Of a DNA stretch of 64,000 bases, positions 1,120-64,000 are shown piece by piece; position 1 is the first letter of the stretch; every line of letters begins with the position of its first letter. Below the pieces are notes generated by a model. It saw only the letters and a list, made by a program, of their open reading frames with translations, was not told the DNA's origin and searched no databases. A program made the translations under genes and the position numbers. Origin of the DNA: a virus (Duplodnaviria; Caudoviricetes); IMG/VR virus record IMGVR_UViG_2767802493_000005, positions 1,868 through 65,867 of that record. One strand, given 5' to 3'.

Positions 1120-2325
1120 TCATCCGGCCCGCAGCTTCACCACGTTGCCATCGCGCAGGCCATCGAGATAATCCGCCCAGACCTGCATCATCCGCACGCG
1201 CTCCTGCAGGTGAGATGTGCGGTTGTAGGCCCGCCCGTTGGGATCCTTAACCGCGTGCGCCAGCTGGTGCTCGATGATGTCCGGGCGGAAGTGCAGGACC
1301 TCGTCCAGAATGGTGCGAGCGGTCGCGCGGAAGCCGTGGCCGGTCATCATCGTGCGGTCGTAACCCATGTTGCGCAGCGCTGCGGTTACGGCGTTCTCCG
1401 ACATCGGGCGTTTCGGATCGCGGGCGCCAGAGAACACCCACTTGTGCCGGCCGGTGATCGGCTTGATGTCCTCCAAGATCTGCAGCGCCTGTTTGGAGAG
1501 CGGCACCAGGTGTGCAGCACGCATCTTCATCTTGCTGGCGGGGATGGTCCACACGGCCGCGTCGAGGTCGAATTCCTCCCATTCCGCATGCCGCAGTTCT
1601 CCAGGACGCAGGAACACCAGCGGCGCCAGCCGCAGCGCCGCCCGGGTGATGGCAGATCCGCTGTATGCCTCGATGGAGCGCAGCAGGCCACCCAGCTGCA
1701 CGGGGTCGGTAATCGCTGCGTGGTGGGCTTCCTTCGGCGGCGCGAGCGCTCCCTTCAGGTCGGCAACAGGGTTTCGCTCCGCCCGGCCAGTGGCCACGGC
1801 GTACCGCATGATCTGGCCGCAGTTCTGCATGATCCGGTGCGCAGACTCGATCGCGCCGCGCTCCTCGATGCGCCGGGCCACACGGAGGAAGTCCGGCGCG
1901 GAAAGGTCGGCGACAGAGCGAGACCCGATCCACGGGAACACGTCGTTCTTCATCCAGGCCTCGACCTTCTCCGCATAGCTGGGCACCCAGGGGCGCGCGG
2001 CCAGCCACTCATTGGCGATGGTCTCGAAGCTGTCCGAGCCGAGGGCGGAATGGGCGAGGGCAGCGGCCTTCTTCTGCGCGCCCGGATCGACGCCTCGGGC
2101 CAGCAGCCGGCGGGCTTCGTCGCGGGCCTCGCGCGCGCGCGCCAAGGAGACATCCGGGTACAGGCCGATCGACAGCAGCTTCTCCTTGCCGGCGATGCGG
2201 TACTTCCAGCGCCAGCTGCGCGCGCCGGTCGGGGTGAGATAGAGGTACAGGCCGCCACCGTCGGTGATCTTCTGCGGCTTGTCGCTGGGCTTGGCGCGCC
2301 TGATGGCTGCGTCGGTCAGAGGCAT
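1120..2325 (-). CDS. int: P4-family tyrosine integrase (Arm-DNA-binding N-terminus)
   Basis: MPLTDAAIRRAKP..KITDGGGLYL..GARSWRWKYR; catalytic LRPGELR, HGFRATART, EHQLAH, AYNR; start moved to ATG 2325. Confidence 0.95.
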   Translation of the reverse strand: MPLTDAAIRRAKPSDKPQKITDGGGLYLYLTPTGARSWRWKYRIAGKEKLLSIGLYPDVSLARAREARDEARRLLARGVDPGAQKKAAALAHSALGSDSFETIANEWLAARPWVPSYAEKVEAWMKNDVFPWIGSRSVADLSAPDFLRVARRIEERGAIESAHRIMQNCGQIMRYAVATGRAERNPVADLKGALAPPKEAHHAAITDPVQLGGLLRSIEAYSGSAITRAALRLAPLVFLRPGELRHAEWEEFDLDAAVWTIPASKMKMRAAHLVPLSKQALQILEDIKPITGRHKWVFSGARDPKRPMSENAVTAALRNMGYDRTMMTGHGFRATARTILDEVLHFRPDIIEHQLAHAVKDPNGRAYNRTSHLQERVRMMQVWADYLDGLRDGNVVKLRAG

Positions 2326-2376
2326 TGGGGGTATCGCTTCAGTGGGTGCGGTCGGATACCCCTTGATATACCCCCA
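2325..2376. repeat. Arm-type integrase binding repeats (ATACCCC / GGGGTAT)
   Basis: TGGGGGTATC 2325-2334, GATACCCC 2355-2362 and ATATACCCCCA 2366-2376 lie between the int start and the att. Confidence 0.6.
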
Positions 2377-2490: not shown

Positions 2491-2844
2491 TGGTGGAGGT
2501 GGGCGGAATTGAACCGCCGTCCGAAGGCACTCCATCCCCAGCACTACATGCTTAGCTCACCGTTGGATCTCGTCCCCGAACAGCACGGTGCGCAAAGCGC
2601 ATCCGGGAACCAGCCTGTTGTGTTCTAGTGCCGGACTGACAGGCAGCCACCCAGCGCGATTCCATGATAGTGACTCTACACCGCGAGCATGGACACAAGC
2701 GGTTTCGAGGCTTAGGCCTTAAGCGGCCAGAGCGTAGTTGTCGTCGTTGGCAACTAGAGTTTTGCAGCTGGATTTACGAGGAAAGCTACCCCCTCGGCAT
2801 GCGCCAGGCGACTTCACAACCCCCGTCGAAACCAATGCACCCCC
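2491..2844 (-). ncRNA. ssrA: tmRNA; tag peptide ANDDNYALAA* at 2751-2719
   Basis: 5' GGGGGTGCATTGGTTTCGACGGGG; tag ORF GCCAACGACGACAACTACGCTCTGGCCGCTTAA; 3' T-arm GGCGGTTCAATTCCGCCCACCTCCACCA. Confidence 0.98.
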
Positions 2845-2851
2845 GGTTTCT
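2833..2851. repeat. attL core
   Basis: CAATGCACCCCCGGTTTCT identical to 62678-62696; covers tmRNA nt 1-12 plus 7 nt of leader. Confidence 0.93.
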
Positions 2852-2880
2852 TCAAGTATTGCAAGGCTTTCAGGCCCCTG

Positions 2881-2900
2881 GTTGACCAAATGTTGACCAA
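2881..2900. repeat. Integrase arm-type sites GTTGACCAA x2 (left arm)
   Basis: 2881-2889 and 2892-2900; the same 9-mer occurs three times near attR. Confidence 0.8.
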
Positions 2901-2910
2901 GAACCCGCCT

Positions 2911-2955
2911 AACGATGCGAATGTTACGGCAATCTTCCTGAACAGTCACGTGGTC
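2911..2955 (-). promoter_or_regulatory. Phage-borne copy of the ssrA sigma70 promoter (-35 GTGACT 2949-2944, 17 bp, -10 TAACAT 2926-2921)
   Basis: 43/45 identical to host-side block 62751-62795; canonical spacing; points into ssrA. Confidence 0.8.
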
Positions 2956-3559
2956 AGCCGGCACTGGCCGGCGGTCCGTCCCCGAGCTCGGGGTGGGTGT
3001 TCAGGTAGTCGATCACGTCATCTTGGAAGAATTGGCCGCGAAAGTAGCTGTGCGGGGCATTCAATGCGACCAATTCGGCTAGATATCTACGGGTGGACAC
3101 GCGATTGATGATGAATTGTCGATCGATAAGCAGCACTTTGTCGTGCGGTTCGGCCGACACGTCTATCACCCGGCCCGGAGGTGCGTCGGGCAAGGGGGTG
3201 TCACAGGGAGTCTTATCGTTGTTGATCTCGACCAAACGATCAAAATGCGTAGCGGTCGCATCCGTGCTGAGGATGTACTCACCACCTTCCATCACTCCCA
3301 TGTACTCGAAGGCGCCGAGCGGACCAGTGTGCTGAATCATTGGCACGTGCCCTTCTTCGTGAAGCCGCCCGCGAACTAAGCCGCCGCTGCGAGCGTCCAC
3401 GATCCAGCCTGCCAAGAACGCGGAAGTGAACTCTTCAGGAGTGCGGATGAAAAGCAGATCGTCATCGCCCCCCGCCGGCGGAGGCGTGGCAGGGGCGGTC
3501 CGTGCGCCTGTCGAATCGTCGTCCATTCCCAGGCTCCAGTCGTTCAGGTACGTCAGCAT
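2954..3559 (-). CDS. Hypothetical accessory protein with an internal repeat
   Basis: GGLVRGRLHEEG..EGGEYILSTDATATHFDRLVEINN and a second FIINRVSTRRYLAELVALNA; lies between int and attL. Confidence 0.65.
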   Translation of the reverse strand: MLTYLNDWSLGMDDDSTGARTAPATPPPAGGDDDLLFIRTPEEFTSAFLAGWIVDARSGGLVRGRLHEEGHVPMIQHTGPLGAFEYMGVMEGGEYILSTDATATHFDRLVEINNDKTPCDTPLPDAPPGRVIDVSAEPHDKVLLIDRQFIINRVSTRRYLAELVALNAPHSYFRGQFFQDDVIDYLNTHPELGDGPPASAG

Positions 3560-3565
3560 AGCCCA

Positions 3566-4729
3566 CTAGACGGCAGACTTCGGCATCCACACTGCAGCGG
3601 CCTTGGCGCCGGCGTCAGGGACCATTGAGGGGATCCACCGGCCGTACTTCTTGGCAGTGATCGTCCAGTCGCGATGCCCCATCTGCCTCGCCACCCACAT
3701 GACGTTTTCGCCCGCGCTGAGCGCCTGGGACGCGAAGGTGTGGCGCATCTGATACGGGTACCGGTACCGGACGCCAGCCTTGCGCAGCGCGCGCTGCCAT
3801 TCGCCGGCGCGGATGCTCTGATCCGACCCCCACCGTGCGTTCGTCCTGGGGTCGTGGAAGACGAACTCGCCGGCGGTGGCGGTATGGGCGCGCTGGGCCT
3901 TCAGGGCCTCGATCGCTGGCTGCAGCAGCTGCACTTCGCGCACGCCGGACTCGGTCTTGGGGGCCTTCATCTTGCCCATGACCCAGGCGCGTCGGATCTT
4001 GACCGTGCCCTTGCGCCAATCGATGTCCGACCAGCAGAGACCGATCATTTCCGAGGTGCGCAGGCCCGTGGCGAAGTTGAACTGGCAATAGTTGCGGACT
4101 TGGTCCTCGCGGCAGGCGGCCAGGATCGCGTGGACTTCCTCCGGCGTGAAGGGGTCGACCTCTTCGCGTGCGTTGGCCTTGGCGCGCCGCTTCACCCTGA
4201 ATCCATCGAGGGGATTGCTTGGGATCAAGTCGTCGGCCACCGCCTCGTCCAGGGCGCCGCGGAGCGGGCCCAGGACGTTGTTGATGCGCTTGGCCGACGT
4301 CGACTCGTCAAACGTGGCCACCAGCTCCTTCAGCGCGATACGGTCGAAGTCACGCAGCGCGATCGACCCGCAGCGCGGCACCAGGATGTTCTCGACGATG
4401 CGCCGGTAGCCAATTAGGCTGCTGTGCTCGAGCTCAGGCTCCTTCTGTGCCAGCCACCGTGTCAGCACCTGCTCCAGGGTGTCGAGGGCCGCTGGCTTCT
4501 CCGCCACCTGTACCGCGCGCTTGCTGCCGGGGAAGTGGGTGGCATAGTCGAAGGTGCCTTTCTCGATCTCGACCTTGATCTGCCCCAGCAGATTCTCGCA
4601 GTAGCGCAGGTTACGAGCGGTCGGGGCGAGCTTGATCCGCTCACGGCAACGCTTGCCCCGATAGTAGAAGTCTATTGCGATGCTGCTCTGTGTAGCTGGC
4701 CTGACGCCGCTTTGCCGTGCATTACCCAC
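3566..4729 (-). CDS. int: Prophage tyrosine integrase (DUF3596/Arm-DNA-binding type N-terminus)
   Basis: SIAIDFYYRGKRCRE..IEKGTFDYATHFPGS; TGLRTSE, YQMRHTFASQAL, QMGH, KYGRW. Confidence 0.95.
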   Translation of the reverse strand: MGNARQSGVRPATQSSIAIDFYYRGKRCRERIKLAPTARNLRYCENLLGQIKVEIEKGTFDYATHFPGSKRAVQVAEKPAALDTLEQVLTRWLAQKEPELEHSSLIGYRRIVENILVPRCGSIALRDFDRIALKELVATFDESTSAKRINNVLGPLRGALDEAVADDLIPSNPLDGFRVKRRAKANAREEVDPFTPEEVHAILAACREDQVRNYCQFNFATGLRTSEMIGLCWSDIDWRKGTVKIRRAWVMGKMKAPKTESGVREVQLLQPAIEALKAQRAHTATAGEFVFHDPRTNARWGSDQSIRAGEWQRALRKAGVRYRYPYQMRHTFASQALSAGENVMWVARQMGHRDWTITAKKYGRWIPSMVPDAGAKAAAVWMPKSAV

Positions 4730-4950
4730 TCTTCGTACCCCTCCAGGTCGATCAGGTTTCTTCCATCCGGCGCCTTGATGAACACGGCACCCTCCAGCCA
4801 GTCGCCCCGCTTGATCTTCGAGTTGACCGCGTCGACCGTGTAGCCGGTCAGCGTCTCGAACTGTTTGAGCGTGACGAACCGGACCGGGCGCAGATTCGCG
4901 GGGGATGCGCCCCTCGACAATCCTCGCGCTGAGGGGGCGTGGCTACTCAT
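4672..4950 (-). CDS. xis: Excisionase
   Basis: RFVTLKQFETLTGYTVDAVNSKIKRGDWLEG..KAPDGRNLIDLEGYEEWV; overlaps the int start; ATG 4950 overlaps the end of the upstream gene. Confidence 0.8.
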   Translation of the reverse strand: MSSHAPSARGLSRGASPANLRPVRFVTLKQFETLTGYTVDAVNSKIKRGDWLEGAVFIKAPDGRNLIDLEGYEEWVMHGKAASGQLHRAASQ

Positions 4951-5173
4951 GGGACACCGCCTGCAGGCTCCAGAGGACCGACGGCCGCTCGTCGGGGCCG
5001 TGGAAAGGCGCGCGCCGCACGCGGCCGGTCTTGGCCAACTGGTGCAGGTAGCTGCTGACCCGGTTCGAAGGCAACTGCAGTTCGGCGGCCAGCTCCCCGG
5101 CCAGGCCCGGCCCCTCCTGCAGCAGCTGCAGGATCCGGGTGGCTGTGCCGACGGCAATGCCTGCGTCAGCCAT
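4943..5173 (-). CDS. Small winged-HTH protein
   Basis: RILQLLQEGPGLAGELAAELQLPSNRVSSYLHQLAKTGRV. Confidence 0.7.
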   Translation of the reverse strand: MADAGIAVGTATRILQLLQEGPGLAGELAAELQLPSNRVSSYLHQLAKTGRVRRAPFHGPDERPSVLWSLQAVSHE

Positions 5174-5435
5174 GGTCTACCTCGTCCGCTGTGACGTGGC
5201 CCGGGCATCCGGTGCCGGTGTAGTCGAAGCCCTCACAGGGAGCGAGCGGGATGACCTTGCGGCCACTGGCCAGGTGGTCGGCCAGCACCCGCCGGGCTTC
5301 CGCTGCAGTTACCGGCTCTCCTGGCGGATTGCGTTGAAAGAGCCCGTCCAGATCCTGGTCGGTCATGTTCGACAGTGCGCCGGCGACGTCCAGGTGCACG
5401 TGGTAGCGCACGGGCAGGCGGTCAGAAGAATTCAT
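5166..5435 (-). CDS. Phage hypothetical protein
   Basis: ATGA-coupled start MNSSDRLPVRYHVHLD within the leftward operon. Confidence 0.6.
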   Translation of the reverse strand: MNSSDRLPVRYHVHLDVAGALSNMTDQDLDGLFQRNPPGEPVTAAEARRVLADHLASGRKVIPLAPCEGFDYTGTGCPGHVTADEVDHG

Positions 5436-5992
5436 GCGTCGGGCTCCTGGTGTTCGGCGCTGCGCTCGGCAGCATTCAAGGCGGCGCGCCGCTGGGCGAA
5501 GCCGCGGCAGGCGCTGATGGCGTTGCCGTGCTCGTCGACGGCTTCGTGGCAGAGGAAGGGGCGTTCGCCCGGGGTAGAGCAGTAGTCCGCGTCCTCCGTG
5601 GTCGGGAGGCACTGGTTGGCCACGGTGCCGGCGCGGAACGCACAGCCCCCGCAGAGCGGGCCAGGGTCGACGCCGGCGGCCAGCACAATGCCGTTGAGCG
5701 CGCCCAGGATGCAGGGCATGTTCACGCGCTCGGCCTCGTGCGGCCACACGTGACCCTGCAGCACCAGCAGGTCCTCGGCCTGCTGGCGGGCGTTGCGGGC
5801 GACCTGGTTGGCCAGGCCAATGAACTCGCCGAACAGGTCGGCCATAGCGCGGGTGCCGATCCGCGCGGCCAGGCGTCGCAGCGCCGGCCGGCGGAGATCC
5901 ATGGGTACCGCCGCAATCGCGCGTAATTCCATGGCCAGATCTGGGTGGATGTTGTGGTCGGTGGCGCGATCGCGCGCTGCGGGGTCAGCCAT
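5432..5992 (-). CDS. Hypothetical protein with a Cys-rich putative metal-binding C-terminus
   Basis: LCGGCAFR..QC..YC..FLCHE..ACRGF; overlapping junctions. Confidence 0.6.
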   Translation of the reverse strand: MADPAARDRATDHNIHPDLAMELRAIAAVPMDLRRPALRRLAARIGTRAMADLFGEFIGLANQVARNARQQAEDLLVLQGHVWPHEAERVNMPCILGALNGIVLAAGVDPGPLCGGCAFRAGTVANQCLPTTEDADYCSTPGERPFLCHEAVDEHGNAISACRGFAQRRAALNAAERSAEHQEPDA

Positions 5993-48173: not shown

Positions 48174-49673
48174 ATGGCCATCAACGATCGAGACGAACTG
48201 AACCCCGCCGGCGTCGCGCCCGGACAGCCCCGCATTGCCGCCCGGCCAAGCCCTGGCACGGCCTTCGGCTCGGCGCTGCGCAGCGGTGTCGCCGGAACCG
48301 CCACGTTGGCGCGGCAGGCCGCCGGCGCAGGATTGCGTGCCGCCGGTACCGTCGCGGATGCGGTGACGGCGCCAGGTCGGGAGGCGGCAGGCTTCGTGCG
48401 CGATGCAGGTCGAGCTGCCGCCGGCGCGGCGCCGTCGCCCCAGCAGGGGCAGCCGTTGAGGGCGCCCAGCGAGCTCAATCCGATCGGCGGCGCCGCCAGC
48501 GCGCTGAGCCGCCTGGCTCCGGTGAGGCTTGGCGGTGCCGCGAAGCCGAAGCCCACCTTCGCTGGCGTGAGCTCGAGCGTCGACTCGACTGCAGGCCTCG
48601 CCGGTTCACGCCTGGCCAGCCGGCCGTCGAACGGGGCGGACTTCACCGGTGTCAGTTCCAGCGTGAACTCCACTGCATCGCCTGCAGGTGCAGCAGGTCT
48701 GGCAGCTCCCCGGGCCGCCGCGGCTGTTGCAGCTGCTCCCAGCACGTACACGACGCAGGACGGCCGCACGGCGACCCTGCCGGCAGGCATCACCCGCACC
48801 GTAGATGCCAACGGCAACTCGGTGTTCACCGGATCCTCCGCCACCATCGCAGCCGCTCGCGGGCCGGCGCCGGCCGCTCCGGCCAGCGGCGCACCGGCGT
48901 CGCCCCTCGTGACGCCTCTCGCGGCCGCACCTGCAGCGCCGACAGTGGTTGCTCCGCGGCCGACTCCGCAGATTGCGCAGCGCGGGCGCCAGGGCGGGAT
49001 CATCGAGAATCCGGCCGACACCACGGTGGACAAGCTCACGCGCGCGATGGGCAGCGCAAGCCTGAAGGGCAGCCCGAGTGGCCGCGCCGCAGTAGCGCAA
49101 GCGATCTTGGGCGAGGCCGGCGCGCGCCAGGCAGAGCGCGCATCTGCGCTCCGCACGCAGGACGAAGCCGACCTTGCCGCCGGCCAGGTCAACGCCGTCG
49201 CTGCCCAGGGCGATGCGAACCGCGCGCTGCAGGCCGGCCAGTTCAATGCCCAGATGCAGGACAACGTCGCCAATCGCCAGGCGTCGCTGGAAACGGCCCG
49301 CATCGCTCGGCGGCCGGAGATCTCGGTTGCGGCGGATGGAAGCATGGGGGTTGTGGGCAGCGACGGCGGCTGGCGCCCCGTGACTGGTGCCGACGGACAG
49401 AACGTGCGGGCGGTCCAGGCGCCGCGCCAAACCGGCGAGCTCACCGATGCCGACCGCCTGAAGTCCTACACCGATCGATTCAACGCCATTTCCGGGAACG
49501 TCACGATGGACGAAGCCGCGAAGACCGCCGCTCTGGCCCAGCTCGATGCGGATCCGCTCTATGCCGGCCTGCGCCCGCAAGAAGCCCCGCCTGTGGCCGG
49601 TGCGCGTAGGGCACCCGATGGCAACTGGTACGTGCAGAACAACGACGGCAGCTACTCGAAGGTGAATCTCTGA
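48174..49673 (+). CDS. Probable internal virion (ejection) protein
   Basis: Ala/Gly-rich; C-terminal APDGNWYVQ..GSYSKV; coupled to the giant gene. Confidence 0.55.
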   Translation: MAINDRDELNPAGVAPGQPRIAARPSPGTAFGSALRSGVAGTATLARQAAGAGLRAAGTVADAVTAPGREAAGFVRDAGRAAAGAAPSPQQGQPLRAPSELNPIGGAASALSRLAPVRLGGAAKPKPTFAGVSSSVDSTAGLAGSRLASRPSNGADFTGVSSSVNSTASPAGAAGLAAPRAAAAVAAAPSTYTTQDGRTATLPAGITRTVDANGNSVFTGSSATIAAARGPAPAAPASGAPASPLVTPLAAAPAAPTVVAPRPTPQIAQRGRQGGIIENPADTTVDKLTRAMGSASLKGSPSGRAAVAQAILGEAGARQAERASALRTQDEADLAAGQVNAVAAQGDANRALQAGQFNAQMQDNVANRQASLETARIARRPEISVAADGSMGVVGSDGGWRPVTGADGQNVRAVQAPRQTGELTDADRLKSYTDRFNAISGNVTMDEAAKTAALAQLDADPLYAGLRPQEAPPVAGARRAPDGNWYVQNNDGSYSKVNL

Positions 49674-52600
49674 TGGCAACGTTCGAGAAGGTTGATGGAA
49701 ATCCGTTCGGTGCGAGCCCGGCGCCGACTCAGGCGCCAGCGCCAACCACCGGCAAGGTTGCGCGCCGGCCGACGCTTTCACCCGTCCAGGGCGACCCGTT
49801 CCAGAAGGTCGCGAAGCGCCCGGAGCGCACCTGGGGGGAGGCCATCAAGGACACCGGCCTGGGCATCGCATCCGGCGCCGCCAACATCATCGGTGGCGCC
49901 GTGGAGCAGCGAAACTCCATGGAGCCGACCAACGTCGTGCGGCAGGGCCTGCGCTTCCTGGACAGGCTGGGTGTCAAGGGCGCATCTGAAACCGCTGCCC
50001 TGGTGCCGGGAACGCCCTCGGAGATCTTCGGCGGGCGCCGTGCTGGGTCCGATACAGCGGCCCTGTCCAAGGCAACGCAGGCGGCCACCGACTACCTGGC
50101 CGAGAGTCAGTCGGATGCGCTGAAGCAGGAGAAACAGGACCTGCAGGACACCAAGGGGTTCTTCCCCAGCGCCGGCAAGGTACTGTCCTCACCGCGACTG
50201 ATCGGCAACTTCCTGGCAGAGCAGGTGCCCAACGTCGCCGCGATGGGAGCCGGCACTCGACTTGCTGCTGCGCGTGCCGGTGAACGCGCACTCGCGGGTG
50301 CGGTGGCCAAGGGTCTCGGTACCGAGGCCGCAGAAACGGCTGCCACGGCCGCTGGTCACCGCGCAGCGACCGCCGCTGCCACTGGCATGACGACCATCAT
50401 GGAGACCGGGTCGGCGGGCCAGCAGACCTACCAGCAGGCCATGGCGCAGCCGCAGTCGGTCTGGGATGCCAACCCGGAGTACAAGCGCATGGTCGCCGCC
50501 GGCGGCGATCCGCAGACGGTGAAGGAAACGATCGCGCGCGGCGCATCGATGGAGGCGCAGGCGATCACTGCGCCGATCGCGGCGATCGCCGGCCGCATTG
50601 CGGCACCCTTCGAAGCGGACGTGTTCACCCGTGGCCTGGCTCGCAAGCCCAAGGCAATGCTTGCCGGCGCCGCTCGCGAGACCGTGGAAGAAGGCATCCA
50701 GGAAGGCGGCTCCCAGCTTGCCGGCAACCTTGGCCAGCGGCAGATCGATCCGACCCAGGCTGCATGGGAGGGTGTCCCCGAAGCGGCCGGTACCGGCGCG
50801 GCGATCGGCGGCCTGCTCGGCGGCGGCATGGCCGCCGGTGGTGCTCTGGCCAGCCGCGGCGACAACCAGGCTGCGGTGGCAGCCGATGCGGAACGGGAGC
50901 GCCTGGCGCGTCGGCCGACTCCGACACCCCCGTCACTGCCGCCGCCGCCGATTCCCCAGATGCTGGCGCTGCCTCCGCCGGAGGTAATGACTGCAGGACC
51001 CGATGGCACTATCACGCCGGGCAGTGTTCGCCCGGAGGTCATGGCAGAACCCGAAATGCGGTTCCCACAGGGTCGCGGCATGTCCGCGCCGTTTGACGGG
51101 CGCCGAGTCGCCGCGCGGCCGCAGCCGACGGTCCCGTTCCCGGATGCGGCACCTGACTCGATCGCCGGCATCGCCAACCTGGTATCGCGTGCTCGTCGGT
51201 CGGCAGATCCAGCTGCTGCAGGTGCACCTGCAACTGCAAGCACAGAGGCCCCAGCTCCGCAGGTTCAAGATGTGCAGCCCGGCCTGGCGACGCCGGAGGT
51301 CCCCGCGCCGGCATCGCCTGCATCGCCGCCGGCGCCGGCGGTGGCGCCGCCGTGGGTCGATGCGCAGACGGGCGAAACTCTGCGGGAGCCGACCTCGACC
51401 GACATCAAGCAGCTGCTACACACCGGTCTGCAGTACCAGGTCGAGACCCATGGCGGGATCAACACGCCGACCCTGCTGCGCTCCATGCGCGACCAGTACG
51501 GGCTGCCCAGCGCCCGGGTGCGGCCGCTGCTGGAAGAGGTCAAGGGCGAGCGTCGACGTGGCTTGACCGAGCCGCCGGCGGACGCCGGCAACGAGGCAAC
51601 GGGTGAAGTAGCAGGCGCGGCGCAGCAGCCGCCGAAGGGCGCGGCGCCGCAGGCTGATCTGCAGCTGGATGGCACCGCAACCGCCGACCGTGCCGCGCCG
51701 GCTCCACTGGCCAGCGAACTGCAGCTCGAGCCAAGGCAAGCAGAGGCGCAAGGGGATACCGGTTCGTCTCGCGAACCGGTCGGCGAGCCGCGTGCGGTTG
51801 GCACCAGGCAGGCTACCAGCGCGGGCGATACCGCTCCGGAGCAGCCCATTGCAGAGGCGTCGGCTGGCCAGAACAGCGCGGCGGTGCCCGCGGACGCACC
51901 GAAAGTGGCCACCGCGGCAGCCGAGGCGGCGACCAACCCGGGGAACGACTTGCCGCTGCCTTCGGATGCGCAGAAGGAAGCTGGGAACTACAAGAAGGGC
52001 CATGTCCGCATCAATGGCCATGACATCAGCATCGAGAACCCTGCAGGTAGCCAGCGTGATCCTCGCTGGCCGGCGCTGAAGAACCACTACGGCTACTTCA
52101 AGGGCACGGTCGGCAAGGACAAGGACCACGTCGACGTGTTCATGACCGACCGCGCAGAAGATCCGTCCCTGCCGGTCTACGTGGTCGACCAGGTCAACAA
52201 GGACGGCTCCTTCGACGAGCACAAGGTCATCATGGGAACCGCGTCGGAGCAGGAAGCGCGCGACACCTACCTGGCCAACTATTCGAAGGGCTGGACCGGC
52301 CTGGGCGGCATCAAGGAAATGTCGCAGGAGCAATTCAAGGCGTGGGTGCGCGACCCGAAGAAGACTACGCGCCGGGTAACCAAGGCCGTGCCGGCGGCGC
52401 AGGCGCCAGCCACGAACGTAAGTGAACCAGGGCAGGGCGTCAGCGCTTCGGTCGAAAGCGTCAGTGCGCCGGCAGAAAGCGGCGGTGCGTTGGCCAAGAC
52501 CGGGATGGAACCTGCAGCAGCTGCAGCTGCTGCAGCGCCGGCCGCAGGTGAGGCTGGCCCGGTCTATACGCCCAAGGTGCGACGCATCGGTGGCTCCCCG

Positions 52601-55600
52601 CAGTATGACCGCGGCGACATTGGCACCCTTGGTACGTACTTCGCGCCGGGGCGCATCGTGAACGCCTATGGCAACACCCGGGATCGAGTGATTGAGTTTC
52701 GTCCGCCGGGGAAGGATCCGCGCTGGCAGGTGAAGGTTCAGCAGGTCGATTCCGCTGGCAACCCGCTGCCAGGTGAGGAGCCGCGCTGGCACAGCACGAT
52801 CCCGTCGCCGAACGACTTGGAACAGGTGCTCGGCAAGCCGGTCGCGAAGGCGCGCAAGGCTACCGCCTCTGCACAGAACAGCACCGCGGCGAACGACGCC
52901 GCGCCCGCGCTGCCGCAGAAGCAGGCCGCCACTCCGGCGGTGATCGAAGACCTGGGTGAGAAGCTGGGCGGTGCGCGCAAAGACCTGGCCAAGCCGACCG
53001 GTGCCCGGCCGCAGCGTCGGGCAGATCCGGACGGCGACCAGGACACCGGCGCCGCCTGGTCAAAGAAGTACGTCGCGATGGAAGACACCCGCAACCCGGG
53101 AACCTGGCGCCTGTTCAAGGCGAAGAAGGGCCGCTTGGGCAACCCGTTGGCCAGCCGGCAGACCTTTGCCAGCCAGGCCGAGGCCGACGCGGCAATCCCG
53201 ATGGTCGAGCTGGCTCGCAATCACCGCGCTGTAGAGCGCGAGCCCAACAACTGGGCGATCGCGCGCGACGTCACCGACCGCAAGCGCGTCTATCTCAAGG
53301 ACGGCTTCGACACCCGCGCGGCGGCGCTGCAGTACATGGCGGAGCACGCGCCAGCGCTGATCGATACCAAAACCACCGTGGGCGAGGATGCACTGCCGCG
53401 GCCGGACAAGGTCATGCGCATCGGTGAGGCGCGGCGGGAAGGTGATGTCCAGGGCCAGCAGTTCATGGACACCTTCGGCTTCCGAGGTGTCGAGTTCGGC
53501 AAGTGGAACAACCAGGACGAGCGCCAGGAGGTGATGAATCACGCCTTCGACGCGCTGGTCGACCTGTCCGAGCTGCTGAACCTGCCTCCGCGGGCGATGA
53601 GTCTGGACGGTCAGATTGGGCTGGCCTTCGGCGCGCGTGGCCACGGCCTCAGCGGTGCCCGTGCGCACTACGAGCGCGACTACGCGGTGATCAACCTAAC
53701 CAAGCTGAAGGGTGCCGGCTCCCTGGCCCACGAATGGATGCACGCGCTTGACCATTACCTCGGCAGGCAGGATGGCCGGGGATCGGAGCAGGTGACCAAC
53801 GGCCGCGGTGACAAGGTCATGAAGGCGTCCGGGGTCGAAGACTACCTGAGCAATGCGAGCCGCCTGCGGGGCAATGTGCGCCCGGAGCTCCGCGCGGCAT
53901 TCCAGGAGCTCATGGACACCATGCGTACCCGTGCCGAGCAGTACGTCGAAGACACGGCGCGCGCTGAGTCCTTCCTCGGCAAGGCCCGTGACCAGGTGCA
54001 GAAGCAACTGGGGGACCTGCGCGCCCACATCGAGAAGGAGCGGGCCTGGGGCTCGCGGAAGCGACCCGCCACCCAGCAGGAGCTGGCCACCTTCGATGCT
54101 GCTGCCGATCGGCTGCTCAACGGTGACACGTTCAGCACCGATGCGAAGCCGACCAAGGGTGGTGGCGTCCGGTTCACCAACGAAGAACTGGACACGCTGG
54201 ATGGCGTCCTGAAGGCGGTTACCAACCGCACCGGCTTCAACTCCGATCGCACCGGTTCGCTCGATCGGCTGCGCGACGCAATGGGTACGTACCAGCGCCG
54301 GGTGGAGCTCTGGCGGTCGGCTGATGCCGGCGAGACGAAGACCAAGAGCGTGCCGACCTCGTTCATGACCGAGGCCCGAAAGCTGGATGATGGCCGCGTG
54401 GGCAACTACTGGACCACGCCGCACGAGCTCCTGGCGCGCGCCTTCAGTTCCTACGTTGAAGACCGCCTGCAGGACGCCGGCCGCGCCAGTGCGTTCATGT
54501 CTTTCGGTTCGGATCCGCGCTTCGCTGTGCCGGTCGGTACCGAGTTCGCTCGGCCGTTCCCCGGCGGGGTCGAGCGCCAGGCCATGAATGCCGCGTTCGA
54601 CCGCTTCTTCGCCGAGGTCAAGCACGAAGAGACCTCGACCGGTGGTGTCCGCCTCTTCTCCCGCCGTGGGTGGGAGGCCGACTTCCCCGATGTCGTGACG
54701 GCTCACCGTCCCGGTCGCCTGAGCGCGCATGCGGATTACGCAGCAGCCAAAGCCGGTGACGACACTGCGGCGCTGCGCGTAGCGCGCGACGTCATCACCC
54801 CGGAGTTTGTCCAGGACGTGCGTGCTGCGCTGCCGGAGGGCAGCAAGCCCCTGGTGGTGGCCGTGCAGTCCCAGGAAGCCACGGGCAACAACCGCATCCC
54901 GCGGATGGCTGCCGAGGTGCTGGCCCAGCGGCTGGGACTGCAGGTGTCCGAAGACATCGTCCAGGCCGCGAAGGTCAACCGTAGTGCCGGCGATGCTCTG
55001 CACCGGCTGGCCAACCAGCCCCCGTTCACCGGCAAGGTGGAGAAGGGCCGCGACTATGTTCTGATCGATGACACGCTGACCCAGGGCGGCACGCTGGCTC
55101 AGCTGAAAACCCACATCGAGGACAACGGCGGGAAGGTGGTGCTGGCCACGGCTTTGACCGGCAAGGACTATTCGCGGAAAATCGCCCTCAACTCCCAGAG
55201 CCTGGCCGACGTCCGTGAACGTTTCGGATCAATCGAACCCTGGTGGCGCGACCAGTTCGGCTACGGCTTCGAAGGCCTCACCGAGTCCGAAGCGCGCACC
55301 ATCCTCACCCTCGACAAGGGACGTCTCGATGCTGACGCCCTCCGAGATCGAGTCGCTGAAGGCCGAGTATCGGGCCTCCGGCCAGTGGGCGAAGGAGCAG
55401 CTGGCGAAGGATCCGGAGCTGAAGCACCTGGGCCCGGCGGGCGGGTAAACCGATCCGCTGCACCGGCTGCCAGCGGCGGCCTTGACTTCGACCGCGCGCT
55501 GCAGCTCAAAACCGACCTGACCCAGCACTGGGGCGAGAACGCGCCCAGCGTGGTCGTGGTGCGCTCGGCCGAGGACTTCCCAGCCAGCGCCAAGGTCGAC

Positions 55601-58600
55601 CCGGGCTATCGCCGGGCCGAAGGTGTGTACGACGGGCGGCCCACGGTCTGGATCAACGCCGGCAACATCGCCACCGAGCAGCGCTTCGCTCAGGTGCTGG
55701 CCCACGAGGCAATTGGCCACTACGGCGTCGAGTCCGTGGTGGGGGCCAAGGATTGGACCCAGATCGTGGACGCGATCGACAAGCTGGCCGCCGACGGAAC
55801 CGGTACCGCTGCATTGAAGTCGGTGCTGGCTGATGTGACCAGGCGCTACGGCACCGTCGATCGCGAGACCTTCGCCAAGGAAGCGATCGCCGTCATGGCC
55901 GAGCGGGGGATCCGCAACAGCTTCACCAGTCGCGTCGCCGCCGCGGTGCGCCGGTTCCTGCGCCGCGTCATGCCGTCGCTGAAGTGGTCCGAGGCCGAGG
56001 TTCGGGACCTGTTGAGCCAGGCCGACGGCTTCCTGCGCGCCGGCATGTCGGCGCAGGCACAGCGGGAAATGGTGCGCTCCTACTCGTTCTCACAGCCGCA
56101 GATTGATGGCCGCGGCGAAGCCTTCCTCGAGCAGAATGGCGGTCGATTTCTTCGCCGCGACGATCAGTGGTACCTCGCCGACGAGCGCGGTCGACCGGCC
56201 GACTTCCTGACCCTTGGCGCCGCGCGTGCTGAGGCCGAGCGCACCGGTGGCCAGGTCCTGGCCGATCCGGTCGAGAATGGGCCGCGGACCTGGAGCGTGG
56301 TCCTGCCCAACGGTGCCGAGGTGACGCGCGCTGCTCGCGGCCGCCTCTTCAGCATGCCGCCGGCGGACGCACTGGCTGACATCGATGCGATCCAGCAGGG
56401 CATTCAGGGCGAGGGTGTGCTGGCGCGTGCCCGGCAGAAGCTGGCAGACCTCAGCCTGAGCAAGGTGAAAGACACATTGCGGCCCACCTGGCTCGGTACG
56501 CTGGCCACCCGGCACCTGACGGAGCTGGGACGCGACTATTTTCCGACCATCGATCGCTATTCGGACTACCTGGCCGAAATGCAGGCCGATCGGAACAAGC
56601 TGCAGGCGGAGGCGGACACGATCGCGGAGGCGGCGCGCCAGTGGGCCAGCAAGAACAAGGCCGAAAGCAGGCGCCTGTTCGATCTCATGCATCAGGCCAC
56701 TATGGACGGCGTGGACCCGTCCCGCGAGTACCAGCCCCTGCAGTTCCGGATGCCTGGCGAGAAGGGCCTGCAGGAGGTCAACCGCAAAAACGTGCTACAT
56801 GCCATCAAGGTGAAACAGCAGCAGATGCGGGAGCGCAGCGGCGACAGCAAAACGAACATCATGAACGAGGTCAAGGCGCTGAAGGCCATGCTGAAGGCGG
56901 AGCCGCGCCGGCGCCGGCAGTACGCTCCGTTGGTTGAGCAGTGGTCGCAGCTGTCGCCTGAAGCACGGAGGTTCTACATCCAGTTCCGTGATGCCTATCG
57001 AGCCAGGTCCGACGCGGTGGAGGAGGCCTTGGTACAGCGCATTGAGGATCTGAAGGGCGGCGACATGGTGGGAGGAACGGCCCTAAGCGATAGCAGTCGC
57101 CGCATGTTGGTGCACAAGGTTCGAGAACAGTTCGAATCGGCACGCCTGCAGGGTGTCTACTTCCCCCTGCAGCGCTTCGGCAAGTTCTTCGTTGCAGCGG
57201 AGAAGGACGGCACCAACACCTTCCTGATGTTCGAATCGCTGAATGAGCTGGATCGTGCGGCGGAGGATCTGCAGCGCAGGGAGTGGGTCATTACCGCTCG
57301 AGGGCAGAAGATGGAGGGCAAGGCAGCTGACGCACCGAGCGGCACCTTCGTTGCCGACGTGATCGACCAGTTGCGCACGGCCCATGTGTCCGACGCGGTC
57401 CAGGACCAGGTCTACCAGCTGTATCTGCAGACCATGCCGGAACTGTCGATGCGCAAGCATCAGATTCACCGCAAGTCGGTGCCTGGCTTCGATCCCGATG
57501 CCGTGCGTGCGTTCGCCTACAACATGCAGCACGGTTCCCACCAGCTGGCCCGGCTGCGCTACGCCCATAAGTTGCAGGGGGTGCTGACCGACCTGAAGGA
57601 CGCACAGAAGAAGATCCAGGCGTCCCCCAGCGTCGACACGCGAAAGATCGTGGCCGGTGACGCTCTCCTGGAAGAGCTGGGCAAGCGGCACGACTGGATC
57701 ATGAACCCCACCGACTCGGCGCTGACCAATCTGATTTCGTCGTTCGGCTTCACCTACTACCTGGGCGCCACGCCGGCGGCCGCACTGGTGAACGTTACCC
57801 AGACCGCCCTGGTCAGCTACCCCTACCTGGCCTCCCGGCACGGTGGGGTCAAGGCCATGAACTACCTGCTGGCCGCAAGCCGCGACGCCGTGCGCACCGT
57901 GGGCAACATCCAGAAGACCCTGACCGATCCTGACGAACTGCGTGCATATCAGGCGCTGGAAGTCGCCGGCGCGATCGAGAAGACGCAGGCCCACAACCTG
58001 GCCGGCATCGCCGAAGGCGGCATGACCGGCTACAACCCGGCCTGGAGCAAGGCCATGGAGATCATCGGCTGGGGCTTCCACAAGACCGAGGTCATCAACC
58101 GCGAGGCGACGGGCATGGCCGCCTACCGTCTGGCGCGCGCGGATGGCAAGTCGTTCGACGAGGCGGTGAAATTCGCCCGGGACGCCATCTTCGACACCCA
58201 CTTCGACTACAGCAACGCCAACCGCGCCCGCTTCATGCAGAGCGGCACCGCCAAGGTGCTGCTGATGTTCAGGCAGTACAGCTTGAACATGACCTGGGCG
58301 CTCGGGCGAATGGTGTGGCAGGCCACCAAGGGGCAGGATCCGCAGGTGCGCCAGATTGCCCGGCGCAACTTGACCGGCCTGCTGGGCATGAGCGCGCTGT
58401 TCTCCGGCGCGATGGGCCTGCCGATGATGGGCATGATCATGGGTGCGCTGAACGGGATCCAGGCCACCTTCGGGGATGACGACGAACCCTGGGATGCCGA
58501 GACCGAGCTGCGGGCTTTCCTTACCGGCATGCTGGGGCAGGGCGGCGCGGATCTGCTGCTGCACGGGCCGGCCGACAAGCTGACCGGTGCGAACATTTCC

Positions 58601-59221
58601 GGCCGAGTCGGCCTGGACAGCCTGTGGATCCGAGACGCCGATCGCGAGCTCGACGGGCGCGGCATGTTCAACAACCTGCTCGAGCAGGCCGCAGGGCCGA
58701 TGGGCGGCGTCCTGAAGAACGTGCTGGTCGGCAAGCAGCAGGTCGACGAGGGCCACATCATGCGCGGCGTCGAAACCATGCTTCCGAAGGGCCTGAAGGA
58801 CATGATCAAGGCCGGCCGCTACGCCACCCAGGGCGTGAACACCCTGCGTGGCGATCCGGTCGTCGAGGACCTGTCGCCCTGGGAGATCCTGCTGCAGGCC
58901 AACGGGTTTGCGCCGGAGAAGGTGTCCCGCCAGTACGAGACCACCCGCGCGCTGAAGAACTACGAGCAGCACATCCTCGACCGCCGCAAGTCGCTGGTGA
59001 ACGCTTTCGCCATGGCCTTGCGCAACGGCGACGCCAGCGACCGGGCTTCGGTGCTCAGCAAGATCGGCGCCTTCAACAAGGCAAACCCGGAGCTGGCGAT
59101 CACCTCGAGCGGTCTACAGCAGTCCATCAAAAACCGGGCCCGCTACAGCGCCAGGGCGGAGGCCGGCATCGTGCTCAACCCGAAGCTGGAGGCGCGGCTG
59201 AACAAAGCCGTGACCGAGTGA
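49673..59221 (+). CDS. 3182-aa large polyvalent ejection protein (InPase, LPD5, LPD1/metallopeptidase, PRTase, second metallopeptidase, PLxRFG)
   Basis: GNYKKGH..IENPAGS..HYGY..GKDKDHVDVF..DEHKV (~51950-52355); EDLGEKLGGARKD (~52945); SLAHEWMHALD (~53720); YWTTPHELLARAF (~54405); VLIDDTLTQGGT (~55060); LAHEAIGH (~55700); YFPLQRFG (~57160). Confidence 0.85.
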   Translation: MATFEKVDGNPFGASPAPTQAPAPTTGKVARRPTLSPVQGDPFQKVAKRPERTWGEAIKDTGLGIASGAANIIGGAVEQRNSMEPTNVVRQGLRFLDRLGVKGASETAALVPGTPSEIFGGRRAGSDTAALSKATQAATDYLAESQSDALKQEKQDLQDTKGFFPSAGKVLSSPRLIGNFLAEQVPNVAAMGAGTRLAAARAGERALAGAVAKGLGTEAAETAATAAGHRAATAAATGMTTIMETGSAGQQTYQQAMAQPQSVWDANPEYKRMVAAGGDPQTVKETIARGASMEAQAITAPIAAIAGRIAAPFEADVFTRGLARKPKAMLAGAARETVEEGIQEGGSQLAGNLGQRQIDPTQAAWEGVPEAAGTGAAIGGLLGGGMAAGGALASRGDNQAAVAADAERERLARRPTPTPPSLPPPPIPQMLALPPPEVMTAGPDGTITPGSVRPEVMAEPEMRFPQGRGMSAPFDGRRVAARPQPTVPFPDAAPDSIAGIANLVSRARRSADPAAAGAPATASTEAPAPQVQDVQPGLATPEVPAPASPASPPAPAVAPPWVDAQTGETLREPTSTDIKQLLHTGLQYQVETHGGINTPTLLRSMRDQYGLPSARVRPLLEEVKGERRRGLTEPPADAGNEATGEVAGAAQQPPKGAAPQADLQLDGTATADRAAPAPLASELQLEPRQAEAQGDTGSSREPVGEPRAVGTRQATSAGDTAPEQPIAEASAGQNSAAVPADAPKVATAAAEAATNPGNDLPLPSDAQKEAGNYKKGHVRINGHDISIENPAGSQRDPRWPALKNHYGYFKGTVGKDKDHVDVFMTDRAEDPSLPVYVVDQVNKDGSFDEHKVIMGTASEQEARDTYLANYSKGWTGLGGIKEMSQEQFKAWVRDPKKTTRRVTKAVPAAQAPATNVSEPGQGVSASVESVSAPAESGGALAKTGMEPAAAAAAAAPAAGEAGPVYTPKVRRIGGSPQYDRGDIGTLGTYFAPGRIVNAYGNTRDRVIEFRPPGKDPRWQVKVQQVDSAGNPLPGEEPRWHSTIPSPNDLEQVLGKPVAKARKATASAQNSTAANDAAPALPQKQAATPAVIEDLGEKLGGARKDLAKPTGARPQRRADPDGDQDTGAAWSKKYVAMEDTRNPGTWRLFKAKKGRLGNPLASRQTFASQAEADAAIPMVELARNHRAVEREPNNWAIARDVTDRKRVYLKDGFDTRAAALQYMAEHAPALIDTKTTVGEDALPRPDKVMRIGEARREGDVQGQQFMDTFGFRGVEFGKWNNQDERQEVMNHAFDALVDLSELLNLPPRAMSLDGQIGLAFGARGHGLSGARAHYERDYAVINLTKLKGAGSLAHEWMHALDHYLGRQDGRGSEQVTNGRGDKVMKASGVEDYLSNASRLRGNVRPELRAAFQELMDTMRTRAEQYVEDTARAESFLGKARDQVQKQLGDLRAHIEKERAWGSRKRPATQQELATFDAAADRLLNGDTFSTDAKPTKGGGVRFTNEELDTLDGVLKAVTNRTGFNSDRTGSLDRLRDAMGTYQRRVELWRSADAGETKTKSVPTSFMTEARKLDDGRVGNYWTTPHELLARAFSSYVEDRLQDAGRASAFMSFGSDPRFAVPVGTEFARPFPGGVERQAMNAAFDRFFAEVKHEETSTGGVRLFSRRGWEADFPDVVTAHRPGRLSAHADYAAAKAGDDTAALRVARDVITPEFVQDVRAALPEGSKPLVVAVQSQEATGNNRIPRMAAEVLAQRLGLQVSEDIVQAAKVNRSAGDALHRLANQPPFTGKVEKGRDYVLIDDTLTQGGTLAQLKTHIEDNGGKVVLATALTGKDYSRKIALNSQSLADVRERFGSIEPWWRDQFGYGFEGLTESEARTILTLDKGRLDADALRDRVAEGRVSGLRPVGEGAAGEGSGAEAPGPGGRVNRSAAPAASGGLDFDRALQLKTDLTQHWGENAPSVVVVRSAEDFPASAKVDPGYRRAEGVYDGRPTVWINAGNIATEQRFAQVLAHEAIGHYGVESVVGAKDWTQIVDAIDKLAADGTGTAALKSVLADVTRRYGTVDRETFAKEAIAVMAERGIRNSFTSRVAAAVRRFLRRVMPSLKWSEAEVRDLLSQADGFLRAGMSAQAQREMVRSYSFSQPQIDGRGEAFLEQNGGRFLRRDDQWYLADERGRPADFLTLGAARAEAERTGGQVLADPVENGPRTWSVVLPNGAEVTRAARGRLFSMPPADALADIDAIQQGIQGEGVLARARQKLADLSLSKVKDTLRPTWLGTLATRHLTELGRDYFPTIDRYSDYLAEMQADRNKLQAEADTIAEAARQWASKNKAESRRLFDLMHQATMDGVDPSREYQPLQFRMPGEKGLQEVNRKNVLHAIKVKQQQMRERSGDSKTNIMNEVKALKAMLKAEPRRRRQYAPLVEQWSQLSPEARRFYIQFRDAYRARSDAVEEALVQRIEDLKGGDMVGGTALSDSSRRMLVHKVREQFESARLQGVYFPLQRFGKFFVAAEKDGTNTFLMFESLNELDRAAEDLQRREWVITARGQKMEGKAADAPSGTFVADVIDQLRTAHVSDAVQDQVYQLYLQTMPELSMRKHQIHRKSVPGFDPDAVRAFAYNMQHGSHQLARLRYAHKLQGVLTDLKDAQKKIQASPSVDTRKIVAGDALLEELGKRHDWIMNPTDSALTNLISSFGFTYYLGATPAAALVNVTQTALVSYPYLASRHGGVKAMNYLLAASRDAVRTVGNIQKTLTDPDELRAYQALEVAGAIEKTQAHNLAGIAEGGMTGYNPAWSKAMEIIGWGFHKTEVINREATGMAAYRLARADGKSFDEAVKFARDAIFDTHFDYSNANRARFMQSGTAKVLLMFRQYSLNMTWALGRMVWQATKGQDPQVRQIARRNLTGLLGMSALFSGAMGLPMMGMIMGALNGIQATFGDDDEPWDAETELRAFLTGMLGQGGADLLLHGPADKLTGANISGRVGLDSLWIRDADRELDGRGMFNNLLEQAAGPMGGVLKNVLVGKQQVDEGHIMRGVETMLPKGLKDMIKAGRYATQGVNTLRGDPVVEDLSPWEILLQANGFAPEKVSRQYETTRALKNYEQHILDRRKSLVNAFAMALRNGDASDRASVLSKIGAFNKANPELAITSSGLQQSIKNRARYSARAEAGIVLNPKLEARLNKAVTE

Positions 59222-62513: not shown

Positions 62514-62550
62514 TTGGTCAACATCTAATGTTGACCAAGAAGTTGACCAA
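62514..62550. repeat. Integrase arm-type sites (right arm)
   Basis: TTGGTCAAC 62514-62522 (inverted); GTTGACCAA 62530-62538 and 62542-62550. Confidence 0.8.
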
Positions 62551-62594
62551 ACGCTGCCAATCGATGCCCATTTCAGCCCATGCGGCAGTGATCA

Positions 62595-62631
62595 ACGAAA
62601 AAGCCCATCAAGCTAAAGCATTGATGGGCTT
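62595..62631 (-). terminator. Minus-strand intrinsic terminator inside the right phage arm
   Basis: AAGCCCATCAA-N9-TTGATGGGCTT followed by TTTCGTT on the minus strand. Confidence 0.75.
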
Positions 62632-62677: not shown

Positions 62678-62696
62678 CAATGCACCCCCGGTTTCT
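62678..62696. repeat. attR core
   Basis: Identical to 2833-2851. Confidence 0.93.
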
Positions 62697-62750
62697 ACAG
62701 TGCTGCAAGGTACAGGGCCGATTCCGTGTCGCCACGGGCAGGGCCTGCCC

Positions 62751-62795
62751 AACGATGCGAATGTTACGGCAATCTTGCTGAACAGTCACGCGGTC
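62751..62795 (-). promoter_or_regulatory. Displaced native ssrA promoter (-35 GTGACT 62789-62784, -10 TAACAT 62766-62761)
   Basis: On the host side of attR; 43/45 identical to 2911-2955. Confidence 0.8.
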
Positions 62796-62908: not shown

Positions 62909-64000
62909 ATGGCCGTTTTCATCAGTTCCGGCAGGATGCGGTTGCGATGGATGGGGATGGTGGCCGTGGGGGCCCTGGCACTGCAGGCCGGGACTGTCGC
63001 GGCCGCAGAATCCTCGCGTGCGTCGGTGGAGGTGGCGTACAGCCCCCCGCTGGACCTGTTCAACCTGCTCGACAACCTTCCGGATTGGCTGCCGGGCTAT
63101 ACCACTGCGGCCTACCAGCAGGAATGGCAGCGGCACTTTGGTCTGGACGAGCGTGATCGCCACTTGCTCGCCGGCTACGCTGCATTCCGCCGGCGTACGT
63201 CACCATTGGCACGGGACGATGAGGCCAAGGGCACGCCGGCTGATCGCCTGTTCGCGGGCTCCGATACCCGCACGGGTGATTCATATACGCGCCATTTCCT
63301 CGCTGCGGCCTCTTTCGATGCCGCCACTGAGAGTGCGATCGCCGCCCAGACTCCCGACGATCAGGCGCTGCTGAGGCAGTATTACGCGCGCTTCGCGCCG
63401 CGTGCACGGCGCCTGTTGACGGCGGCGCAACCGTTCCACGAGCAGCAGGACGCGCTTGCCCGTCAGCTCACGTCGCCTCCAGTGGGCAGGCTTGCGGATG
63501 AAATGAAAGCCTTCTTCAAGGTGGATGCTCCCCCGACCTTCCAGGTTCGTTTCCTCTGGTGGCCGGATGCCACGCAGACGCAGGCAAAGCTCCGTGGCGG
63601 TTACATTTTCCTGTTCTCGACGTTCGATGCCAAAGAAGACTGGGCACCGATCGTGATGCATGAATACAGCCATTTTCTTTCCGCGGGACAACCATTGAAG
63701 CAGCGGCAGCTGTTGGCTGGGGCGTTTGCTGCGCTATGTCCGGAAGCATTGACGTTGCCCAATCCGTTGAATGCCCTGGAGGAGCCGCTGGCCATCTACT
63801 GGGGCCAGTATCGGTTCCAGCATCAGGTGCGTGGCGAGACGCTGTCGGCGGCGTCCTCGTGGTACATCCAGCCGCGTGCGGATCGTGCGGCGAAGGCACT
63901 TGCCATTGCGTTTCCGGCGGGACGGCCCGCGCCACGCCTGGAGGTCGGCCCGCTGCTGGATGCGGCGGCATCGGTGTGTGCTTACGCCAAGGTTGAATAG
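62909..64000 (+). CDS. Host exported protein with an HExxH zinc-metallopeptidase motif
   Basis: Signal peptide (..ALALQAGTVAAA), IVMHEYSHF and downstream LEEPLA; stop TAG at 63998-64000. Confidence 0.65.
   Translation: MAVFISSGRMRLRWMGMVAVGALALQAGTVAAAESSRASVEVAYSPPLDLFNLLDNLPDWLPGYTTAAYQQEWQRHFGLDERDRHLLAGYAAFRRRTSPLARDDEAKGTPADRLFAGSDTRTGDSYTRHFLAAASFDAATESAIAAQTPDDQALLRQYYARFAPRARRLLTAAQPFHEQQDALARQLTSPPVGRLADEMKAFFKVDAPPTFQVRFLWWPDATQTQAKLRGGYIFLFSTFDAKEDWAPIVMHEYSHFLSAGQPLKQRQLLAGAFAALCPEALTLPNPLNALEEPLAIYWGQYRFQHQVRGETLSAASSWYIQPRADRAAKALAIAFPAGRPAPRLEVGPLLDAAASVCAYAKVE

Follow-up and report, generated by a model that had tools for sequence, protein, structure and literature searches.

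How does a transfer-messenger RNA (tmRNA) gene keep a promoter when a prophage is inserted at its 5′ end? Standard teaching and island-finding software both treat integration at a tRNA or tmRNA gene as a 3′-side event in which the host promoter stays in place and the element restores the 3′ end of its target. The question is raised by a 64,000-nucleotide stretch of the IMG/VR virus record IMGVR_UViG_2767802493_000005 (positions 1,868 to 65,867 of that record; hereafter the window), in which a 60-kb prophage, whose host genus is Stenotrophomonas, meets the 5′ end of the tmRNA gene, ssrA. It is very likely that this prophage sits between ssrA and its native promoter, and that the phage attachment site (attP) carries a replacement promoter and leader. 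An initial annotation of the window had proposed that the prophage cuts ssrA off from its promoter and supplies its own copy, and this proposal is supported by empty sites in host genomes and by attP junctions in relatives of the phage.

A prophage at the 5′ end of ssrA

The window belongs to a provirus record of 65.9 kb in total, with a CheckV completeness of 89%. The features that define the insertion are as follows.

2491–2844, minus strand: ssrA, complete, with the tag ANDDNYALAA (ARAGORN; Rfam RF00023, 196 bits, model positions 1–374)
2833–2851: core of the left attachment site (attL), a 19-bp identity within which the crossover must fall, from comparison of attP, attL and attR
2852–62677: prophage body, ~59.8 kb, with PHROG matches for terminase large subunit, portal, head closure and virion proteins, plus a tRNA-Met
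62678–62696: core of the right attachment site (attR), consisting of the displaced 12-nucleotide tmRNA 5′ stub plus 7 leader nucleotides
62936–64000, plus strand: host gene that encodes a secreted HExxH protein and, in relatives without the prophage, lies immediately upstream of ssrA

The exact 19-mer CAATGCACCCCCGGTTTCT is found at the two core positions and nowhere else in the whole record, where simple arithmetic gives a chance expectation of ~0.01 for an exact repeat of this length in 64 kb. Read on the ssrA sense strand, it comprises 7 leader nucleotides followed by tmRNA nucleotides 1 through 12, and the displaced tmRNA fragment at 62678–62689 is accordingly nucleotides 1 through 12. No repeat of a tmRNA 3′ fragment is present anywhere in the record. 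The initial annotation had described the repeat with this same composition, which stands, but the position that it implied for the far copy (62679–62697) does not, as that copy occupies 62678–62696.

A duplicated candidate promoter block

The core is accompanied, at both ends of the prophage, by a leader and a candidate promoter that point toward the tmRNA sequence.

2921–2949, minus strand: phage-supplied promoter candidate, with −35 GTGACT at 2949–2944, a 17-nucleotide spacer and −10 TAACAT at 2926–2921
2852–2920, minus strand: phage-supplied ssrA leader, equivalent to the P′ arm of the attachment site, with two arm-type sites GTTGACCAA at 2881–2889 and 2892–2900
62697–62789, minus strand: leader (type B) and promoter native to ssrA, now directed into the end of the prophage, with −10 at 62766–62761 and −35 at 62789–62784

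We confirm the earlier observation that a 45-bp block of the form GTGACT-N17-TAACAT occurs both in the phage (2911–2955) and on the host side (62751–62795), with 43 of 45 positions identical; a repeat search extends the similarity to 61 nucleotides at 87%. The predicted transcription start for the phage copy falls near 2914, which would give a leader of ~70 nucleotides. Between core and block lie 59 bp in attL and 54 bp in attR, and the letters of these two segments are mostly different. This unlikeness had also been recognized, but its reading as mere divergence does not hold, since the attL segment is the P′ arm of the phage and carries arm-type sites.

The pattern of conservation across phages and hosts bears on the function of the block. 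When five subtypes of the phage arm are compared, the fixed letters are confined to the −35 region (GTGAC, TTCA) and the −10 sequence GTAnnAT, and both spacer and leader vary. Positions T1, A2 and T6 of the −10 element are invariant throughout hosts and phages, and the similarity between phage and host stops exactly at the −35 element, upstream of which everything diverges. A survey of 58 Stenotrophomonas species representatives recovered the promoter pattern in 54, located 83 to 108 nucleotides upstream of tmRNA position +1. A search of 401 genomes across the family yielded 18 matches compared to none with a reversed control; these are mostly Stenotrophomonas-like, and because the pattern requires the tmRNA 5′ end of this genus, the search is uninformative on other genera. 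Selection on a promoter would be expected to preserve the hexamers and to let the spacer, the leader and the region upstream of −35 diverge, as observed here, which fits the earlier suggestion of selection on the block. In nearly all native and phage-borne leaders, a short motif (CGTCAAG, CGTCAGC, CGTTAGG or CGTTGGG) is also retained ~8 to 15 nucleotides after the −10 element, although the leader otherwise varies.

Junctions in empty sites and in phage relatives

Host genomes were reached by searching with the host gene to the right of attR. In three Stenotrophomonas genomes, ssrA is directly upstream of a homologue of the HExxH gene, ~225 bp apart, and the HExxH gene was found directly upstream of ssrA at loci L003, L004, L005, L030, L032, L033 and L040. 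The uninterrupted ssrA upstream regions of L005 and L034, with a type-B leader and the block, are nearly the same in sequence as the attR side of the window (~3 mismatches in 105 positions for L034), and in L005 the host gene follows leader and block. Because these uninterrupted regions match the attR side, the bacterial attachment site (attB) can be assigned the order tmRNA, core, type-B leader, native promoter and host gene. An attB that joins ssrA to the attR-side leader, promoter and host gene had been predicted from the window, and this is the junction that prophage-free Stenotrophomonas genomes contain.

The prediction that integrase relatives carry the promoter block in attP is borne out as well. 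We found 30 IMG/VR loci encoding integrases 76–98% identical to that of the window, 20 of which reach the att site. All 20 have the block by the core, in the form GTGAC..TTCA-N-TAnnAT starting 105 to 106 nucleotides before GGGGGTGCA(T/C)TG. Seventeen of these continue into tmRNA sequence, as expected of attL, and the other three (L068, L059 and L065) continue into the P-arm sequence that the window has on the phage side of its attR, and represent attP-type junctions. The attP itself, in these three loci, therefore contains the block, the leader and the 12-nucleotide stub. One of them, L068, comes from the interior of a metagenomic phage contig of 52.7 kb.

Evidence of the same arrangement comes from an independent genome, G041, whose integrase is 77% identical to that of the window. 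It has a phage promoter copy at attL by ssrA, the native counterpart at attR on a different contig, and its own candidate P-arm terminator and arm repeats. Full integrases are located upstream of ssrA in G413 and G442, and integrase remnants occupy this location in G428 and G286. A separate family-wide search with the integrase gave matches at an expect value (E) of 1e-60 or below in 3 of the 401 genomes. One of the three, G390, has no tmRNA in the vicinity, and neither G390 nor G449 is used for any conclusion here. One 63.9-kb IMG/VR record (L059 and L069) holds two integrases (91–92% identity) and two units of promoter, leader and core, one joined to tmRNA and the other to a P arm, an arrangement that fits prophages in tandem at the ssrA 5′ site.

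These junctions suggest the following course of events. The attB site would straddle the 5′ boundary of the tmRNA gene, and a lambda-type integrase would cross over inside the 19-bp core, such that integration separates ssrA from its native promoter. As ssrA would lose this promoter, the integrase-proximal attP arm should therefore carry a working substitute, which would consist of native-like −35 and −10 elements ~105 nucleotides upstream of tmRNA position +1 and of a leader of ~70 nucleotides that doubles as the P′ arm. After integration, ssrA would be transcribed from phage DNA, and the mature 5′ end would presumably be cut as usual. We infer the activity of promoter and terminator, and the exact positions of strand exchange, from this arrangement.

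The integrase and its arm-type sites

62514–62550: P arm with three arm-type sites GTTGACCAA, inverted at 62514–62522 and direct at 62530–62538 and 62542–62550
62594–62631, minus strand (ssrA sense): hairpin plus U-tract, a terminator candidate facing the orphaned native promoter (−22.9 kcal/mol, z −5.75)
3566–4729, minus strand, co-directional with ssrA: tyrosine integrase with an Arm-DNA-bind_2 (DUF3596) N-terminal domain (Pfam PF12167, PF00589)
2954–3559, minus strand: cargo open reading frame (ORF) of 201 amino acids (orf201), with its stop codon 5 nucleotides upstream of the −35 element

The integrase gene and ssrA share a strand, with the former 720 bp upstream. Its product matches the catalytic domain PF00589 (residues 195–362, E 1.6e-20, 74 bits compared to a cut-off of 27.1) and the arm-DNA-binding domain PF12167 (residues 8–70, E 9e-22, 77 bits), and the core-binding (SAM-like) domain PF14659 scores 21.2 bits against a cut-off of 22.6. 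As judged from its catalytic domain, its arm domain and the presence of arm-type repeats, this is an integrase of the heterobivalent, lambda-Int-like (arm-binding) type. The repeat GTTGACCAA occurs five times in 64 kb, with 0.24 copies expected, and all five copies reside on the two att arms, where the integrase presumably binds them.

The arms of related phages carry other motifs. In L068 the arm motif is TTGCCAGC, present as two direct copies in P′ and as two direct copies plus one inverted copy in P, in the same layout as in the window. A third arm motif is present on both arms of G041. In eight of nine phages whose arms carry TTGCCAGC, identity to the window integrase is 81–84% over the first 75 residues and 94–96% over the rest of the protein.

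Transcription from the orphaned promoter at attR would read through the 12-nucleotide stub into the P arm, where the hairpin and its U-tract should stop the transcript after ~160 nucleotides. This hairpin is found ~47 nucleotides past the core, and its position is kept in L068 and in the attR of G041, with different stem letters in the latter.

The cargo ORF, orf201, has no family match in Pfam, NCBIfam or PHROG. Across IMG/VR loci L042–L071, the distance from the integrase stop codon to the promoter block ranges from ~70 bp to ~3.9 kb, indicative of a variable cargo slot. In G286 and L061, the block comes immediately after the end of the integrase reading frame.

Phage-type leaders without a phage

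Some host genomes carry a phage-type leader in the absence of a recognizable phage. In G001 (L003/L022) and G002 (L004/L023), the host gene is directly by ssrA, the leader is of the attL type seen in the window, and the arm repeats are degenerate. No integrase homologue was found in either genome at E <= 1e-20. Three further species have decayed leaders of the TTGCCAGC type with no integrase within 8 kb. Within the survey of 58 species, exact tandem arm repeats are always accompanied by an integrase or a remnant of one. Phage-type leaders with degenerate arm repeats and no integrase were noted at L072–L074 and in G353.

We somewhat favor the view that leaders of this kind are scars of earlier lysogeny, from which the prophage was removed when one promoter copy recombined with the other. 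Alternatively, hosts with such leaders may have been the source from which the phage captured its arm. A broader proposal, which is rather unlikely to hold in all of its parts taken together, is that the Stenotrophomonas ssrA upstream region has been repeatedly overwritten by phage attP arms, with each lysogeny swapping in a promoter and leader. Prophage loss by recombination between the promoter copies would then fix the phage leader in the chromosome, and integrase or excisionase (Int/Xis) of a resident phage, acting at the arm sites of the leader, would tune trans-translation. If true, this overwriting would explain why a hypervariable leader lies beside a conserved promoter and a conserved tmRNA.

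Weighing the alternatives

Several observations weigh against a substitute promoter in attP, or against parts of the scheme built on it. The elements GTGACT and TAACAT, 17 nucleotides apart, match the sigma-70 consensus at 8 of 12 positions, which is below the threshold of 9 used by a simple sigma-70 scanner, and neither copy of the block was called by this tool. Similarly, a simple terminator scanner made no call at either att site, the P-arm hairpin included. Locus L068 (positions 4001–5160 and 5260–5510) is the exception among the TTGCCAGC phages, as its integrase has an A1-type N-domain, 96% identical to that of the window, together with A2-type repeats. This mismatch makes the covariation of domain and arm repeats imperfect, and could be due to recombination or to an N-domain that tolerates both motifs. 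The direction of arm transfer, from host to phage or the reverse, is also not settled, because phage-type leaders occur in the integrase-less G001 and G002.

The available RNA evidence is similarly mixed. One RNA-sequencing contig, X6, extends from tmRNA through a phage-type leader and ends ~78 nucleotides upstream of +1. This end falls inside the predicted −10 element, ~8 nucleotides upstream of the expected start, and the contig may include DNA-derived sequence or stop where the assembly branches. In another strain (X24), raw RNA reads pass +1 at ~0.2% of the depth of mature tmRNA. The leaders of the strains with raw RNA reads are unlike that of the window beyond ~2868, and the start used in the window is not readable from them.

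One could argue that the block is not needed as a promoter, but is host DNA left from imprecise excision or an extended att site that binds protein, and that ssrA is transcribed by read-through or from some other start. The hexamers that escape the scanner fit this explanation, as do the co-directional orf201 and integrase genes, which end 5 nucleotides before the −35 element. However, five unrelated leader types, from phages whose integrases are 76–98% identical, keep the −35 and −10 letters and their distance to +1, and the same pattern is found upstream of ssrA in 54 of the 58 host species surveyed. Moreover, the integrase operon of a repressed prophage would be a poor source for an abundant RNA, and we consider this explanation very unlikely. 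Even less credible, to the point of being almost certainly wrong, is a crossover in the block itself, by which 2852–2910 would be host DNA and the prophage would begin at ~2956. The block is indeed the longer repeat, and the attL-type leader is also found in prophage-free S. maltophilia (L003, L004), but the arm-type repeats at 2881–2900 recur on the far arm. Exchange within the block is ruled out by the order of elements in attP (L068, L059), which is integrase, block, A-type leader, core and P arm, and in attR, which is host gene, block, B-type leader, core and P arm. Because only exchange at the core yields the observed attL and attR from the attP junctions, we place the crossover there.

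A different proposal accepts the substitute promoter and adds that the phage exerts control in cis, in that Int/Xis bound to the arm sites of the leader, or the 2 differences among the 45 promoter positions, alter how much tmRNA is present in lysogens or upon induction. Two arm-type sites are located downstream of the predicted start and ahead of tmRNA position +1, the leader is wholly phage DNA, and tmRNA is important for the development of some phages. Taken literally, and at the DNA level only, ribosome rescue is under phage control. Nevertheless, the two promoter copies are near-identical, and the persistence of phage-type leaders in G001 and G002, which lack the phage, shows that these leaders are compatible with normal host life. 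Regulation of this kind is unlikely, and the substitution of promoter and leader to maintain ssrA transcription is the interpretation that we prefer.

Relation to known integrating elements

Williams, in 2002, is said to have distinguished t(m)DNA sublocations at the anticodon loop, the T loop and the 3′ end, in all of which the fragment displaced is from the 3′ side and the host promoter remains where it was. Such elements and the phage described here alike employ a tyrosine integrase at a tRNA-like gene, and in both cases the element repairs the gene that it splits. In contrast to the classical elements, the displaced piece in the window is a 5′ stub, and the promoter is replaced. The literature searched yielded no paper on integration at the ssrA 5′ end, although Williams 2002 and 2003 were unchecked for exceptions.

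The closest integrases from named phages, at 42–49% identity, belong to Pseudomonas phages JBD68 and MR13 and to Halomonas phage vB_HmeY_H4907. Downstream of the integrase gene, each of the three has a tmRNA 3′ end (...CTCCACCA) together with a terminator. Rfam recognizes a tmRNA piece in each of them, whereas the free attP of L068 yields none. Insertion in ssrA has been reported for a phage closely related to the Halomonas one (PMC11131426). These phages and the phage in the window share the DUF3596-type integrase family, the ssrA target, and an attP layout composed of integrase, arm repeats and a co-directional tmRNA piece. They differ in that JBD68, MR13 and vB_HmeY_H4907 restore the 3′ part of ssrA, whereas the phage in the window carries promoter, leader and tmRNA nucleotides 1 through 12, and restores the 5′ side. 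Because the relatives at 42–49% identity use the 3′ end, the Stenotrophomonas clade has gone over from 3′-end to 5′-end use of ssrA, and integrases that are this similar but use opposite ends of the same gene offer a natural way to study how an integrase changes its target. Ralstonia phage Dina (integrase 44% identical) has no tmRNA fragment beside its integrase gene.

On the strand co-directional with the integrase, the core at 2836–2846 reads CGGGGGTGCA, and the T-arm piece of Pseudomonas phages (L125 2745–2760, L121 4655–4670) reads CGGGGGTTCA. This likeness may hint at a route to the 5′ end, or may be coincidence, the Stenotrophomonas T-arm being similar too.

The closest analogue in logic is provided by dusA islands, which enter dusA at its 5′ end, replace that end with their own, and after insertion show putative −35 and −10 elements (Farrugia et al. 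2015; PMC4482086). The phage in the window shares with these islands the insertion at a 5′ end with an element-borne upstream replacement. The islands differ in having a protein-coding target and an apparently different integrase family, and in the window it is a non-coding part that is replaced, which doubles as an att arm. In tRNA-dependent lysogeny, mycobacteriophages bring along a complete replacement tRNA gene at another place in their genomes (PMC10865867). Integration would disable a tRNA-like gene in both systems if it were not compensated, which the mycobacteriophages accomplish with a spare tRNA gene and the phage in the window would accomplish in cis, by means of a promoter.

With dozens of IMG/VR records and several Stenotrophomonas genomes, a whole phage lineage appears to do the reverse of the established scheme on the same gene. 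One att arm would be put to three uses, as a promoter, as an RNA leader, and as a docking platform for integrase. Software tools that seek displaced 3′ fragments will miss such elements or misplace their ends. Furthermore, a core housekeeping RNA could become permanently transcribed from phage-derived DNA.

Other features of the locus

The virion module of the prophage contains an ORF of 3182 amino acids (49673–59221, plus strand). On the other side of ssrA, the 3′ end directly adjoins a P4-type integrase gene (1120–2330, minus strand; NF007246, E 1e-76), such that ssrA is flanked by integrases of two families. It is accompanied by an ORF of 169 amino acids at 607–1116 on the plus strand, and the same pair, ORF and P4-type integrase, is also located 3′ of ssrA in Stenotrophomonas sp. 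AN71 (L005).
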